Assembly: GCA_964492495.1 (NCBI GenBank)
Contig: CAZBKJ010000001.1
Span: 2,251-66,250, forward strand
DNA from: an uncultured Pseudomonadales bacterium
GTDB lineage: Bacteria; Patescibacteriota; Microgenomatia; UBA1400; UBA12028
Length of the DNA: 64,000 bases
Reading direction: 5' to 3'
Below the pieces are notes generated by a model, which saw only the letters and a list, made by a program, of their open reading frames with translations, did not search any database and was not told the origin of the DNA. The position numbers and the translations under genes were made by a program. Shown in pieces: positions 2,300 through 52,625 of the stretch (position 1 is the first letter of the stretch; every line of letters begins with the position of its first letter).

Positions 2300-2599
2300 A
2301 TGCAGGTTTCATTTACCAGCAAGAACATACTTCTTACCGACGGATTGAAAAATTTTATTACTTCTCGTGTGGGTAAACTCTCCAAATACTCTTCAAAACA
2401 GTTATCTCGTGTGCAAATCATCCTTGATGTTGATCGGCGTAAAAAAGGCAAGTCAGAAGACGCCATGGTCGAGATTGTGGGCGATATTCAAGGAAAACAT
2501 ATCATCGTACGAGAAAATGGCGATAGTTTTTACAAAGCATTTTTTGGGGCAGTGAAAAAAATGAAGACGCGACTCGTGAAATCGCGCAAAAAAATGTGA
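2300..2599 (+). CDS. hpf: ribosome hibernation promoting factor / RaiA (short form)
   Basis: 99 aa; MQVSFTSKNILLTDGLKNFI...KLSKY pattern typical of the S30AE/sigma-54 modulation protein family. Confidence 0.8.
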   Translation: MQVSFTSKNILLTDGLKNFITSRVGKLSKYSSKQLSRVQIILDVDRRKKGKSEDAMVEIVGDIQGKHIIVRENGDSFYKAFFGAVKKMKTRLVKSRKKM

Positions 2600-2600
2600 A

Positions 2601-2906
2601 TCAACAGCGATGCGTTTGTCTTACAGTGATTAACTCAAGATAGTTTATCGGATGTCCTGCAAGTTCGCGGTCACGAAAATCTCTATAGTTTTCTGGTGCA
2701 AGTAATACGTAATAACACTCAAAATCAACCTCAAAATTGGGATCGAGCTTCAGATTCGGGTTATCAAGTACATAGTGCTTGAGATAGTTTTGCAAGTTTG
2801 TGCATGTAGCTTCTCTAGATAGAGAGTACAAGCCGTACGTAGTTAACTTTCCAATTGTGCTGAAGGCTCGATATACAGGATAAGCTTTGGATTCTTGTTC
2901 GTTCAT
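2601..2906 (-). CDS. hypothetical protein
   Basis: 101-aa ORF that fills the gap between hpf and the next gene; no recognisable motif. Confidence 0.35.
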   Translation of the reverse strand: MNEQESKAYPVYRAFSTIGKLTTYGLYSLSREATCTNLQNYLKHYVLDNPNLKLDPNFEVDFECYYVLLAPENYRDFRDRELAGHPINYLELITVRQTHRC

Positions 2907-2967
2907 GATTTGGGTATTTTACACCCTTTCTTGCATCTTTCGCTTCTATTCTCTATCCTGTATTGAT

Positions 2968-3456
2968 ATGGGTGTTCTTCAATCAGCAGCATCAGCAGTA
3001 GGACAAGCAGTGTCCGACGTCGCGGCAGACGTCAAAGATGGAGTAGTGGGAGCAGCAACCGACTCAGTCAAACAAATTGCAAAAACTCCGTTGGATATTT
3101 TGGAAGAATTACTTGGGTCTTCAGGTGCTGGTGGGGGAGCAAATGAGCAGAAATCAGAAGAGGAGCAGGGAGCAAGTAGTCCAGCTAATAAAGCAGCTAT
3201 CGCACAAAAAAATGCCCAAGATGATGCGTTCAAGGTTCAACAGCATCAAGAGTTGCATCAAAAGATCATGCAGCAATCTCAAGGCTACTATGAGCAAAAA
3301 AAGCAAGCTGATGAGCAACAACGACAGATATCAGAGCAACAAAAAGAACAAGAAAAATTCCAGATAAAACAGCTGGAAAAACAAAAAAGTCATGATTATG
3401 CCTTGCAGGCAGCAAAGGATGCATCAAGCGCAGAAAAGAGAATGGGTGCAGGATAG
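2968..3456 (+). CDS. hypothetical Gln/Ala/Lys-rich low-complexity protein
   Basis: ORF track 2887..3456; the ATG at 2968 (MGVLQSAASAVGQ...) is the more plausible start. C-terminal half is Q/E/K-rich and coiled-coil-like. Confidence 0.4.
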   Translation: MGVLQSAASAVGQAVSDVAADVKDGVVGAATDSVKQIAKTPLDILEELLGSSGAGGGANEQKSEEEQGASSPANKAAIAQKNAQDDAFKVQQHQELHQKIMQQSQGYYEQKKQADEQQRQISEQQKEQEKFQIKQLEKQKSHDYALQAAKDASSAEKRMGAG

Positions 3457-5698: not shown

Positions 5699-5748
5699 CG
5701 GAATACAGGTATCAGGAAATATTCATCTACTTTTCAGTTGAGTTGCGC

Positions 5749-5754
5749 TACAAT
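5749..5754 (+). promoter_or_regulatory. -10 element TACAAT(AC), 6 nt upstream of the ATG at 5761 (leaderless-type promoter)
   Basis: gcgcTACAATACggctATG; the same 14-nt motif recurs at 7431-7445. Confidence 0.4.
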
Positions 5755-5760
5755 ACGGCT

Positions 5761-6441
5761 ATGTTTCAAAAACTCCTTGTATTGTGTACTGCCAACCGAC
5801 TGAATGTAATCCGTACCATACAATTCGGATATGTCCTCCTTACTGTTTTTTTTCTCTTCGCGACCTGGGCAATATTTACCAGTAACGTCGCGTGGATGCA
5901 CTTTGTGTATGATGTTGGACTTTTATCTGGGAAACTTGCAACGTTTCTCTTTATCATCGTCACACTTCCTGGAATACTTGGTCGGTTTGGGATCAGACAT
6001 CCGCTGATAACAATTGGGATTATGTTTCGGCGGTACACTGGAATTGGAGTCTTTTTGCTTGGATTTGTTCATGGGATGACGGTCTATAGTTTGCCGATGC
6101 TAGCTGCAAAACAGCTAGTCCTACCACCTCCTTTGTTTATTACTTTTGGACTGACTGCACTTGTATTATTATTTCCACTTTTTTTGACTTCAAATACCCA
6201 GAGTGTTCAGATGCTTGGGAAAAATTGGAAACGTTTGCACTCACTAGTCTATGTTATTTTCTGGTTTATCTTCATCCATGTTGCAATGCAAGGTGAAAAG
6301 TCAGTTGCAATCCTCATCGGCCTCGCTGGATTTTTGGAGATACTTTCACTGGGGTATGCGTTTTGGAAGAAACGAACACAAGCTTCAACCACCTTTCAAT
6401 CTACTGGTACGAACTCATCAGGAAATGTACAATCTCCCTAA
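5761..6441 (+). CDS. ferric reductase-like transmembrane protein (MsrQ/YedZ-like heme-binding subunit)
   Basis: Polytopic; LGKNWKRLHSLVYVIFWFIFIHV matches the conserved (K/R)RLH..VY motif of YedZ/MsrQ. The ORF track start at 5743 is a TTG extension. Confidence 0.5.
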   Translation: MFQKLLVLCTANRLNVIRTIQFGYVLLTVFFLFATWAIFTSNVAWMHFVYDVGLLSGKLATFLFIIVTLPGILGRFGIRHPLITIGIMFRRYTGIGVFLLGFVHGMTVYSLPMLAAKQLVLPPPLFITFGLTALVLLFPLFLTSNTQSVQMLGKNWKRLHSLVYVIFWFIFIHVAMQGEKSVAILIGLAGFLEILSLGYAFWKKRTQASTTFQSTGTNSSGNVQSP

Positions 6442-7381: not shown

Positions 7382-7432
7382 AGATTCTCCTTGTTTTTTT
7401 GTAGTATAAACCAAATTTACGTTTGGGTGCGC

Positions 7433-7438
7433 TACAAT
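7433..7438 (+). promoter_or_regulatory. -10 element TACAAT(AC), 7 nt upstream of the ATG at 7446 (leaderless-type)
   Basis: gtgcgcTACAATACgcactATG. Confidence 0.4.
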
Positions 7439-7445
7439 ACGCACT

Positions 7446-14748: not shown

Positions 14749-14761
14749 GTTCTCTCGATGG

Positions 14762-14767
14762 TACAAT
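14762..14767 (+). promoter_or_regulatory. -10 element TACAAT(AC), 7 nt upstream of the uORF ATG at 14775
   Basis: ggTACAATACttctcATG. Confidence 0.4.
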
Positions 14768-14774
14768 ACTTCTC

Positions 14775-14930
14775 ATGAATCTTTCAGTTGGTATAGTAGG
14801 GTTGCCCAACGTCTGTCCCGGTACTAAAAACTTTATTTTTCGCAGTCGGCTTATTCAGCCGGTTCGAAAATCACGTTTTCATACAGGACTCGACAGTTCA
14901 CATAGTGCAGTAGCCAAGAGGTTTTTATGA
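14775..14930 (+). CDS. upstream ORF (51 codons). Its first 13 residues, MNLSVGIVGLPNV, duplicate the YchF N-terminus. Its TGA stop overlaps the ychF ATG (ATGA).
   Basis: Translated by hand; absent from the ORF track because it is under 60 aa. Copy 1 and copy 2 differ at three codons (ctt/tta, tca/agt, gtt/gta), all synonymous. Confidence 0.4.
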   Translation: MNLSVGIVGLPNVCPGTKNFIFRSRLIQPVRKSRFHTGLDSSHSAVAKRFL

Positions 14931-14965
14931 ATTTAAGTGTAGGTATAGTAGGGTTGCCCAACGTC
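14775..14965 (+). repeat. direct repeat of the ychF 5' end (~39 bp at 14775-14813 and 14927-14965) flanking a 113-bp unique insert
   Basis: An identical 25-mer ggtatagtagggttgcccaacgtc occurs in both copies. Confidence 0.8.
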
Positions 14966-16015
14966 GGTAAGTCCACACTTTTTAATGCGTTGTTAAAACA
15001 GCAGGTAGCTTTGGCTGCCAATTATCCTTTTGCGACCATTGAACCAAACGTTGGAATTGCTCAAGTTCCAGACGCTAGGCTAGAAAAACTGGCAGAGGTT
15101 GTCCATACAACGGTACTCAAACCCGCAACTGTTGAGTTTGTAGATATCGCGGGCTTGGTAAAGGGTGCTAGTACCGGTGAAGGCTTGGGAAATAAATTCC
15201 TCTCACATATCCGTGAAACTTCGGCAATTTGTCATGTATTGCGTGCGTTTAGCGACTCTGAAATCCTTCGTGAGGGGGCAGTTGGCCCGAAAGAAGATTT
15301 GGAAATCATCCGAACGGAGCTTCAATTAGCTGATCTTGCGACACTTGAAAAACAACCGCAACCAAAAGGTGCAGTGACTCCAGAGGCCAAAGAAAAATGG
15401 GACGTGATTGTGAAGTGTAAAGAAACAATCAACAGAGGAAAGATGGTAAACACCCTTGAGCTTACTCCCGAAGAAAAAGACATTGCCAAGGAACTCAATC
15501 TTCTCACAGCCAAAGCAGAAATCTTTGCGATCAATGTGGATGAAGGGGAAATAGCAACAAGAGGCAAGGGGGAAGAGATCAGCAAGATAGCATCAGAGTT
15601 GGGCGAGAATCCGGATTCTATAGTGGTCATTAGTGCTCGAATTGAGAGTGAACTTTCATCACTGTCAGAAAACGATCAAAAAGAATACATGAAGGAACTC
15701 GGAATAGAAAAAAGTGGATTGGAGCGCCTCGCTGAAACTGCATACAAGACACTGGGACTTCAAAGTTTCTTAACCGCTGGCGAACTAGAAGTGCGAGCGT
15801 GGACGATCAAACAAGGAACTACTGCTCCACTCGCGGCTGGGGCAATTCACACTGATTTTATTAAGAAATTTATCAAAGCGAACATTGCAACCTACGACGA
15901 TTTTATTTCATACAAAGGATGGAAGGCTCTCAAAGATGCCGGAAAAATGCGAATTGAGGGAAAAGACTACGTGATGCAGGAAGGTGATGTCGTGGAGTTT
16001 ATGATTGGTGCATAG
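14927..16015 (+). CDS. ychF: ribosome-binding ATPase YchF (Obg-family GTPase)
   Basis: G1 GLPNVGKST; TGS-like C-terminal domain; RBS aagagg 6 nt upstream. Confidence 0.95.
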   Translation: MNLSVGIVGLPNVGKSTLFNALLKQQVALAANYPFATIEPNVGIAQVPDARLEKLAEVVHTTVLKPATVEFVDIAGLVKGASTGEGLGNKFLSHIRETSAICHVLRAFSDSEILREGAVGPKEDLEIIRTELQLADLATLEKQPQPKGAVTPEAKEKWDVIVKCKETINRGKMVNTLELTPEEKDIAKELNLLTAKAEIFAINVDEGEIATRGKGEEISKIASELGENPDSIVVISARIESELSSLSENDQKEYMKELGIEKSGLERLAETAYKTLGLQSFLTAGELEVRAWTIKQGTTAPLAAGAIHTDFIKKFIKANIATYDDFISYKGWKALKDAGKMRIEGKDYVMQEGDVVEFMIGA

Positions 16016-25034: not shown

Positions 25035-26561
25035 TTATCTCCACATTGGGAAGACCTTAAACACGGTATCAACGTACTGTTGAGGCATTGGGTAGCCAGT
25101 AAACATAGGGAACAACAGTATAAACGCGACGATAATCATGACAATTGTAGCTAGAATGACCGCTTTTCCATAGGTTCTTTTCTCAAAACGCAGAAGAAAG
25201 TACGAGAGAAGTATGCAGAGCAGAGGAACTGCCGGTGCGTAGTGGTAAAAGAACATAATACGAGGCGATACTGTCCATGGTATCCATACCATGGCGTAGA
25301 GCGTGAGAAGAAACGAGAGTTCCAGAGGAATCGCGGTTTGCAGTTTTGAGGGTTTGACTCCCAGTATAAACATCCCAATACGAGGGAAGATCAACAATGA
25401 AAGCTCTACAGCAAGAATGAGGGATGCTGTGAGGCCAAACCAGAAAAGTAAGGGATTTCCAGCACCGTAGACATTCCCCACGACACCTTCTGCATTTTTT
25501 GTGTAATCAACGTGCATCCAAACTGGTTTTAGGTCGAGTGCCCATTGCCACGGGCGAGACTGATAGGGATGTGTTGCTTTGAGTGTGGTCTGATACCACC
25601 AAATTTGATTATGAAGCTCAGAAAAATGAGATATCATGCGTTTGCATCCACCACGAGCTTCTAGGCTTTCAAAATATGGACGCTGTCCTGGAGCTAGCTT
25701 TGAGAGTCCTTCCACCCACCAACTTGAGTCTTGGTGACAGTAACACTGAGTCTGTTCGACTTGCGATCCGGTACAGACTAGGCTTTTTCCTTGTAAAAAC
25801 ATGTGAGAATACGAAAGCAGGTAGATAACAATCGGCAGCAGAATAAGGGTAGCGAAACGAATTGCAATACTTTTGAATGGCTTTTTCAACAACGTCTGTT
25901 TTGATGTAAAAAAATGAATAGCCTCAAATAAGCAAATTGTGACTAACACAAAAATCCCAGACCATTTACTTCCCATCGCGAGGCCACTGAGTAGTCCAAC
26001 AAGAGAAAGGTACTTCACTGATACTCCTGTATCATGGGTAAATCTCTGTGTGAGTTTTCGGTATCGTATGTAGCTCCAAGCTGCAAGAATAATACAAAAA
26101 GTCACGTGGATATCATTCATTGCGATACGTGATTGAGCTAAGAGCAGTCCATCTAGCGAGGCAAGGAATGCGGCAAGTAGGGTCAGTTTGTTGTTGCCAA
26201 ATGCAGTATGCGCAATTAGTGCTGTCGCTGCGATCACTGCAACTCCAAACACCACCGAACTTATTCTCCAACCAAAACTATTTTCACCAAAAATTCTCAT
26301 TCCAAATGCTTGGGTGTATTTGGCAAGTGGAGGATGTAACCAATCAACGGCAGTATCAGGTTCCGGTGCAGGGTTCCACCATTCATAGGCAGCTTTATCA
26401 CCTCGCGATATCAGTTTTGAGGTGACTGCGTGATAGACTTCGTCAAAGAAATACGTGGGTGGTGTTGATACCCTGTAGATACGTGTGAGAAACGCAAAGA
26501 GCAAAATTAGCCCAAGAAGGATTGTAAAGCCTTTTTTTGTTTGTAATACTAACAAAGACAT
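25035..26561 (-). CDS. GT-C membrane glycosyltransferase, PMT/GT39-like (dolichyl-phosphate-mannose protein mannosyltransferase family)
   Basis: YFFDEVYHA DE-motif in the first extracytoplasmic loop; more than 10 TM helices. Confidence 0.65.
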   Translation of the reverse strand: MSLLVLQTKKGFTILLGLILLFAFLTRIYRVSTPPTYFFDEVYHAVTSKLISRGDKAAYEWWNPAPEPDTAVDWLHPPLAKYTQAFGMRIFGENSFGWRISSVVFGVAVIAATALIAHTAFGNNKLTLLAAFLASLDGLLLAQSRIAMNDIHVTFCIILAAWSYIRYRKLTQRFTHDTGVSVKYLSLVGLLSGLAMGSKWSGIFVLVTICLFEAIHFFTSKQTLLKKPFKSIAIRFATLILLPIVIYLLSYSHMFLQGKSLVCTGSQVEQTQCYCHQDSSWWVEGLSKLAPGQRPYFESLEARGGCKRMISHFSELHNQIWWYQTTLKATHPYQSRPWQWALDLKPVWMHVDYTKNAEGVVGNVYGAGNPLLFWFGLTASLILAVELSLLIFPRIGMFILGVKPSKLQTAIPLELSFLLTLYAMVWIPWTVSPRIMFFYHYAPAVPLLCILLSYFLLRFEKRTYGKAVILATIVMIIVAFILLFPMFTGYPMPQQYVDTVFKVFPMWR

Positions 26562-52079: not shown

Positions 52080-52085
52080 CACCTG

Positions 52086-52158
52086 TGACCCCACCCGAAT
52101 TCGAATCGGGGTTACCAGGATGAGAACCTGGTGTCCTAGGCCTCTAGACGATGGGGCC
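52086..52158 (-). tRNA. tRNA-Glu (anticodon CUC), 73 nt, CCA not encoded
   Basis: Reverse complement reads GGCCCCA-TC-GTC-TAGAGGCCTAG-GAC-A-CCAGG-TTCTCAT-CCTGG-TAAC-CCCGA-TTCGAAT-TCGGG-TGGGGTC-A. This gives a 7-bp acceptor stem (one GU), a 3-bp D stem as in bacterial tRNA-Glu, and a TTCGAAT T-loop. Confidence 0.85.
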
Positions 52159-52488: not shown

Positions 52489-52625
52489 CGGGACGATGGG
52501 GCCAAGCTGAGCTTGGCTATACTTGCGCTTAGCGCAAGTGCCTCTTCAAACCAATACTAATCCGAGCTTAGCTCGGGTGCCAAACTGATGACTATCTTAC
52601 TTACGCTGGGCGCAAGTGCCTCTAT
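52489..52625. repeat. array of short perfect hairpins plus repeats: tRNA-Glu 5'-end fragment copy (gacgatggggcc), three 7-bp-stem/3-nt-loop hairpins (52501-17, 52522-38, 52562-76), and a 14-mer gcgcaagtgcctct x2
   Basis: Read directly from the sequence between the two GIY-YIG genes. Confidence 0.6.

Follow-up and report, generated by a model that had tools for sequence, protein, structure and literature searches.

Translationally coupled pairs of open reading frames (ORFs), in which the stop codon of one frame overlaps the start codon of the next (AUGA, UGAUG), occur in bacterial operons, and short upstream ORFs are found among them. Leaderless mRNAs, such as that of lambda cI and those of many actinobacterial and Deinococcus genes, begin directly at a 5'-terminal AUG that lies about 7 nt downstream of the -10 box, and they carry no Shine-Dalgarno (SD) sequence. 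Partial duplicates of the end of a target gene mark the insertion sites of integrative elements such as e14 and phage 21 in Escherichia coli icd. Regulatory leader peptides form a further group, to which trpL, ermCL, tnaC, mgtL and similar short ORFs belong. Here we describe a bacterial ychF locus that bears some likeness to each of these systems and also departs from each of them.

Anatomy of a duplicated ychF start

The window, by which we mean the whole 64-kb stretch of DNA that was analyzed, contains the first 13 codons of ychF twice, at 14775-14813 and again at 14927-14965, with a spacing of 152. The features of the locus, all on the plus strand, are as follows.

14759-14767, plus strand: extended -10 promoter box TGgTACAAT, 7 nt 5' of the copy-1 ATG; putative ancestral ychF promoter, leaderless type
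14775-14930, plus strand: 51-codon upstream ORF, made up of the putative relic start and 38 spacer-encoded codons
14775-14813, plus strand: copy 1, putative relic of the ancestral ychF start, codons 1-13 (MNLSVGIVGLPNV), in a context orthologous to the ychF start of relatives
14781-14789, plus strand: variable block of copy 1, CTT TCA GTT, relative-like codons
14814-14926, plus strand: orphan spacer of 113 nt, with a 14-bp imperfect hairpin (14837-14870) and the SD
14916-14921, plus strand: SD AAGAGG, 5 nt 5' of the functional ychF ATG
14927-14965, plus strand: copy 2, functional ychF codons 1-13, with codons 3-5 recoded as TTA AGT GTA (14933-14941)
14927-16015, plus strand: ychF, 362 aa, ribosome-binding ATPase YchF/OLA1

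Copy 1 reads ATGAATCTTTCAGTTGGTATAGTAGGGTTGCCCAACGTC, which is ATGAAT CTT TCA GTT GGTATAGTAGGGTTGCCCAACGTC, and copy 2 reads ATGAATTTAAGTGTAGGTATAGTAGGGTTGCCCAACGTC, which is ATGAAT TTA AGT GTA GGTATAGTAGGGTTGCCCAACGTC. An initial annotation, made from the letters alone, had reported that MNLSVGIVGLPNV is encoded twice, from 14775 and from 14927, with three differing codons that are all synonymous. This is what the sequence holds: MNLSVGIVGLPNV is the translation common to both copies, and the six nucleotide differences between them are all synonymous and all confined to codons 3-5 (CTT/TTA, TCA/AGT, GTT/GTA). The identical run that follows the variable block, given there as a 25-mer, is 24 nt long (14790-14813 = 14942-14965). 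The repeat at the ychF start is the longest local direct repeat of the window, in which only three families of direct repeats of at least 20 nt occur, and three random codon swaps would all be synonymous with p of about (5/63)(5/63)(3/63) = 3e-4. Given its length and these odds, the repeat is therefore real and not a product of chance.

The gene product fits YchF/OLA1, an Obg-like G domain with an N-terminal Walker A (G-x-x-x-x-GKS) joined to the YchF C-terminal domain: its close matches, annotated as redox-regulated ATPase YchF, carry PF01926 and PF06071, and its N-terminus, MNLSVGIVGLPNVGKS, aligns with all homologues. YchF homologues all begin at the position of copy 2, which is therefore the functional start. 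The remaining anatomical claims of the initial annotation likewise hold. Copy 1 has the form of a leaderless-type start, in which there is no SD and the end of the -10 box lies about 6-8 nt from the ATG; the box is TGgTACAAT, and it is also the signal with which most of the closest relatives start ychF (see below). Copy 2 has the SD AAGAGG, 5 nt from its ATG. The frame opened by copy 1 continues as a 51-codon ORF whose TGA (14928-14930) overlaps the ychF ATG (14927-14929) in the tetranucleotide ATGA (14927-14930), the stop/start overlap that characterizes translationally coupled ORF pairs.

A second extended -10-like site, TGgTATAGT (14789-14797), lies inside copy 1, within GTT GGT ATA GTA, and a promoter scan paired it with TTCTCA. 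The corresponding stretch of copy 2 (14941-14949) is without the TG of this site, which the GTT to GTA change removed.

Elsewhere in the window, a promoter-like motif, GTGCGCTACAATACG, stands at 5732-5757 and at 7416-7441, directly before the ORF starts at 5761 and 7446, with its -10 box 6-7 nt from the ATG; further leaderless-type starts are found at 26561 (minus strand), 31806, 34140 and 48404 (minus strand). Judged by such motifs, leaderless-type starts seem common in this genome. Starts led by an SD and starts of leaderless type both occur in the window, and both modes of initiation are therefore plausible in the organism. Two other regions drew our attention. An intergenic stretch at 52500-52625 contains four consecutive short GC-rich hairpins, about 350 nt from a tRNA-Glu (52085-52158, minus strand), and two of the four hairpins form a 26-nt direct repeat (52520-52545 and 52598-52623); the stretch, for which Rfam gave no match above noise, could be a small RNA not yet described or an array of terminators. 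Between ychF and nadE, the segment 16001-18000 has a GC content of 0.36, compared with about 0.41 elsewhere in the window, and encodes a DUF5658 membrane protein and a 316-aa orphan that is 24% identical to a neighbor in one related locus (L084).

The ychF start in relatives

We compared 90 ychF loci, 10 from the nearest relatives that could be retrieved (L081-L090, 73-81% YchF identity) and 80 from more distant ones. Judged by its YchF, the window belongs to the Patescibacteria (Woesebacteria/Pacebacteria-like). In a collection of 15 billion proteins, a YchF 100% identical to that of the window (P0001) is present on one contig and is the one member of its 90% cluster; when a strain-level relative was searched for, the next YchF reached no more than 81% identity, and the variable domain, used as a query, gave identities of at most 66%.

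In nine of the 10 nearest relatives (L082-L090), ychF starts with TG[a/g]TACAATAC, 4 nt and ATG, with no SD; L090, for example, has the start context ctcgaTGaTACAATACTCTTCATGAATCTCTCTGTCGG, to be compared with ctcgaTGgTACAATACTTCTCATGAATCTTTCAGTTGG at copy 1 of the window. An SD precedes ychF in only one of the 10, L081. The flanking synteny (hydrolase, ychF, DUF5658, NadE) is shared with relatives, and the distance from the hydrolase stop to the ATG is 26 nt in the window, counted to copy 1, and 24 nt in L084, which has the same alpha/beta-hydrolase gene. Because nine of the 10 nearest relatives start ychF with the same signal, copy 1 and its promoter are, by this sequence comparison, the ancestral leaderless-type ychF start, kept at its orthologous position. 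A second copy of the ychF start motif is absent from all 90 related loci.

Two observations on the neighborhood of the gene deserve mention. In L085, 414 nt (2587-3000) separate the hydrolase gene from ychF and contain a called 60-aa hydrophobic ORF, as well as a second small ORF (MHLNANWHLAHKMPKNP...) that was recognized by eye only, and the ychF promoter and leaderless start follow unchanged; judging from this locus, the hydrolase-ychF junction evidently tolerates insertions. There is also a mild discordance in the nearest relative, with YchF closest to L081 and L082 (81%) and NadE closest to L084-L088 (64-67%), though these differences are small, NadE being 60% identical to L082 and 54% to L081 (the latter a partial match of 90 aa). 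A recombinant, mosaic ychF was considered and rejected, as sliding-window identity revealed no switch of nearest relative along the gene.

Across the whole set, 20 of the 90 loci (L001-L005, L008-L011, L038, L051 and L082-L090), all of them Patescibacteria-type, some under other database labels, have a TAnAAT box whose end lies 5-9 nt upstream of the ychF ATG. An SD-like tetramer is absent from 18 of these 20; the other two, L002 and L051, also score as SD-like under what is a crude pattern. Most ychF loci from outside the candidate phyla radiation (CPR) among the 90, from Collinsella and others, carry an SD. From the pattern of these start signals, ychF looks leaderless across the Patescibacteria relatives.

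The same loci indicate which of the two copies changed. Relatives have CTC, CTA or ATC at codon 3, TCN (TCT) at codon 4 and GTC, GTT or GTA at codon 5. Because every relative has TCN at Ser4, as does copy 1 (TCA), whereas the AGT of copy 2 is seen at this position in 0/90 loci, copy 2 is, on sequence grounds, the recoded and derived side; the CTT, TCA and GTT of copy 1 are relative-like. Within codons 3-5 the copies disagree at 3/3 third positions, compared with 0/9 among the remaining degenerate codons (Fisher p = 1/220 = 0.0045), a single-block pattern that would not be expected of an old duplicate drifting slowly under selection. A stepwise origin is hard to envisage in a young duplicate, as the block comprises six changes and includes the serine switch from TCA to AGT.

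Accessibility of the ribosome-binding site may be part of the answer. At the position of copy 2, the predicted cost of opening the SD..AUG region is 5.1 kcal/mol with the actual codons (rank 21 of 144 synonymous variants), compared with a predicted 9.8 kcal/mol (rank 126 of 144) when the copy-1 codons (CUUUCAGUU, partly complementary to AAGAGG) are placed there. These modeled values are suggestive, and the recoding would fit selection for an accessible ribosome-binding site once the start had become SD-led. Accessibility does not explain the serine switch, however, because TTA TCT GTA is predicted to score even better than the actual codons.

A probable insertion-duplication and competing explanations

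We consider it probable, while allowing considerable room for doubt, that a lineage-specific insertion-duplication of 152 bp, located within the 5' portion of ychF, divided the gene's start and left a relic upstream ORF (uORF). The insertion would have followed codon 13 (coordinates 14814-14965, or any equivalent register within the repeat) and would have supplied the 113-nt orphan spacer, the SD AAGAGG and a second copy of codons 1-13, thereby restoring a full-length YchF. The ancestral TGgTACAAT and ATG, with no SD, would have stayed upstream, where they now open the 51-codon relic ORF.

The initial annotation had taken the synonymous-only divergence of the two copies as a sign that the upstream peptide is translated and under selection, an argument that does not stand. 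Copy 2 encodes the N-terminus of a conserved protein, and copy 1 would not have diverged since the event. With copy 1 unchanged from the ancestral state and copy 2 constrained, the surviving differences would therefore be synonymous whether or not the upstream peptide matters; constraint on copy 2 alone explains the pattern, and selection on the peptide would not be needed. More generally, when a gene is compared with a nearby fragment of itself, synonymous-only differences are no proof that the fragment is under selection.

As the locus now stands, the extended -10 box would direct transcription from about the A of the relic ATG (~14775). Ribosomes would begin at this 5'-terminal AUG, read the 51 codons of the relic ORF and terminate at the UGA contained in AUGA. 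The SD-led AUG of ychF would be used by newly recruited ribosomes, by ribosomes that re-initiate at AUGA, or by both. Alternatively, the transcript might begin downstream of TGgTATAGT, the second -10-like site, within copy 1. It is plausible that the 51-codon ORF, which lies behind a signal equal to that of the relatives' ychF start, is translated, and plausible too that it is coupled to ychF. The frame that stays open through the spacer and the exact ATGA overlap, with a joint chance of about 5%, could be a hint at selection for coupling. The 51-aa peptide itself is most likely a by-product without a function of its own. Taken at the level of sequence, the locus is a one-off evolutionary accident in one CPR genome, not a conserved regulatory device.

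Searches with the spacer returned little. It shows no similarity to the window, to 85 related loci, to ychF, to the hydrolase gene or to the sequence 5' of copy 1; viral contigs and metagenome contigs contain no exact match, phage records no match, and plasmid records one chance-level match (E = 1). No Rfam family scored above noise for the spacer or the leader, the predicted fold of the leader is no more stable than those of shuffled sequences (z = -0.19), 14775-14926 contains no terminator-like site, and pairing of the 5' end with the SD, present in the predicted minimum free energy (MFE) structure, has a probability of only 0.2-0.3. At the protein level, no Pfam family matched the 38 residues encoded by the spacer or the alternative frame, and the sole match of the spacer-encoded peptides among 1.84 billion representatives is a tandem-repeat junk protein. 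A search with the 51-aa peptide gave zero candidates, a weak negative since YchF N-termini share words with the query.

Several candidate origins were tried against these data and rejected. Simple tandem duplication followed by divergence would leave traces in the spacer, whose local alignment scores against ychF codons 14-51 and against the 113 nt before copy 1 equal those of shuffles. That the spacer is left over from the 163-aa ORF in front of the L081 ychF is not borne out by tblastn, which gave no match. The Rfam searches, the shuffle-like fold and the low-probability pairing of 5' end and SD dispose of a known RNA family or structured leader, and the absence of spacer matches in viral and metagenome contigs, with nothing meaningful in plasmid or phage records, disposes of a mobile element with other copies. 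A diversity-generating retroelement was set aside as the differences between the copies are not restricted to adenines, and ribosomal bypassing between the repeats as copy 2 is equipped with an SD and ATG of its own and no take-off stop codon is present.

Among the explanations that compete with an insertion-duplication, the one that survives best is a scar of foreign DNA that brought its own ychF 5' end, although we regard it as unlikely. Here the arm ATGAATTTAAGTGTA and the spacer would have arrived together. A site-specific integrative element might have targeted the P-loop-coding core, provided a surrogate start and later been almost wholly deleted, in which case copies of the element elsewhere would sit between core + TGTCCCGGTACT... 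and ...AAGAGGTTTTTATGAATTTAAGTGTA + core. Alternatively, homology-facilitated illegitimate recombination might have taken place with a lineage whose SD-led ychF is overlapped by the upstream gene, as in L081. The arm differences beside the core (a 9-nt divergent block adjoining 24 identical nt) are like those of attL/attR pairs and resemble the replacement gene ends of elements that insert into coding genes; there is GTC microhomology at the left junction; and L081 has both an SD (caagagg) and an ATGA overlap with its upstream ORF, so the arrangement exists in the clade. The mild discordance between YchF, nearest L081/L082, and NadE, nearest L084-L088, points the same way. However, the repeats enclose only 113 nt, without an integrase, recombinase or other element gene, and no copy of the spacer turned up in any collection searched. 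Nor is the spacer homologous to the 163-aa ORF of L081, or YchF mosaic along its length.

It is distinctly unlikely that the duplication is an assembly artefact, present in no real genome and created when a metagenome contig was misjoined at the shared 24-mer. Metagenome assemblies can misjoin at repeats, and the locus is a singleton, with one contig carrying this YchF in the 15-billion-protein collection and a spacer matched nowhere else searched. A chimera at the shared 24-mer, however, swaps flanks and makes no duplication, and a misjoin would require core + TGTCCC to exist as a real sequence. The locus is syntenic with relatives on both sides, and random misjoining would hardly be expected to yield a complete, correctly started ychF, its SD properly spaced, together with a relic ORF in frame.

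Finally, the proposal of the initial annotation that the upstream ORF is a selected, translated leader peptide, one that mimics the P-loop N-terminus of YchF and autoregulates ychF through termination-reinitiation in a novel arrangement, is barely credible: it can draw on the ATGA overlap, on the open 51-codon frame, on a leaderless-type start that is intact and identical in architecture to the relatives' functional ychF start, and on the inhibition of leaderless mRNA translation by E. coli YchF (PMC8138138), which through uORF coupling could give feedback in principle, but the uORF is missing from the 90 related loci where its conservation was looked for, the copy-2 constraint already accounts for the synonymous pattern, the 38 spacer-encoded residues are without a homologue, no significant RNA structure (alternative structures included), terminator-like site or Rfam match is present, and the peptide reads GLPNVCPG where YchF has GLPNVGKS, so that the Walker-A GKS is missing and there is no P-loop to mimic.

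Putative leaderless ychF starts and comparison with described systems

The activity of E. coli YchF on leaderless mRNAs also bears on the relatives. A leaderless ychF could, as a hypothesis, be self-limiting in the reduced genomes of Patescibacteria. A related idea for the window is that the relic leaderless uORF has been kept because it gates ychF, with YchF limiting translation of the uORF and, via AUGA coupling, its own synthesis; we think this very unlikely. If it were true, the leaderless ychF start conserved across Patescibacteria would constitute a self-limiting feedback loop, and this genome would hold a rewired version of it. The apparently leaderless ychF of the Patescibacteria relatives, together with YchF as a modulator of leaderless translation in E. 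coli, makes up a wider pattern that could merit testing. The locus as it stands is a small evolutionary curiosity. Under the insertion-duplication that we favor, it would offer a snapshot of a gene shifting from leaderless to SD-led initiation by one insertion, with the old start surviving as a uORF.

Set beside the systems introduced above, the locus is a relic-start uORF that arose via insertion-duplication and is known from one genome. With regulatory leader peptides it shares a short ORF in the 5' region of a gene, which in those systems is the regulated one; unlike them, it is not conserved, lacks both alternative terminator/antiterminator structures and a regulatory codon run, and shows no sign of sensing. 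The likeness to e14 and phage 21 in icd lies in a short duplicate of a gene end that keeps the protein while its codons differ, next to an identical core. Here, by contrast, it is the 5' end that is duplicated, only 152 bp separate the repeats, and neither an element nor an integrase nor a second occurrence is present. In its working, the locus would resemble a translationally coupled pair of uORF and gene placed behind a leaderless start. As in coupled ORF pairs, the TGA of the 51-codon ORF overlaps the ychF ATG, the SD lies inside the ORF and one transcript would be expected, whereas the uORF is no independent gene or conserved leader, begins with ychF's own first 13 codons and is confined to one genome. 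In architecture there is a correspondence with leaderless mRNAs, whose arrangement of -10 box and AUG is exactly the one shared by copy 1 and by the ychF starts of the Patescibacteria relatives; the difference is that in the window this leaderless-type start no longer opens ychF and instead opens the relic ORF.
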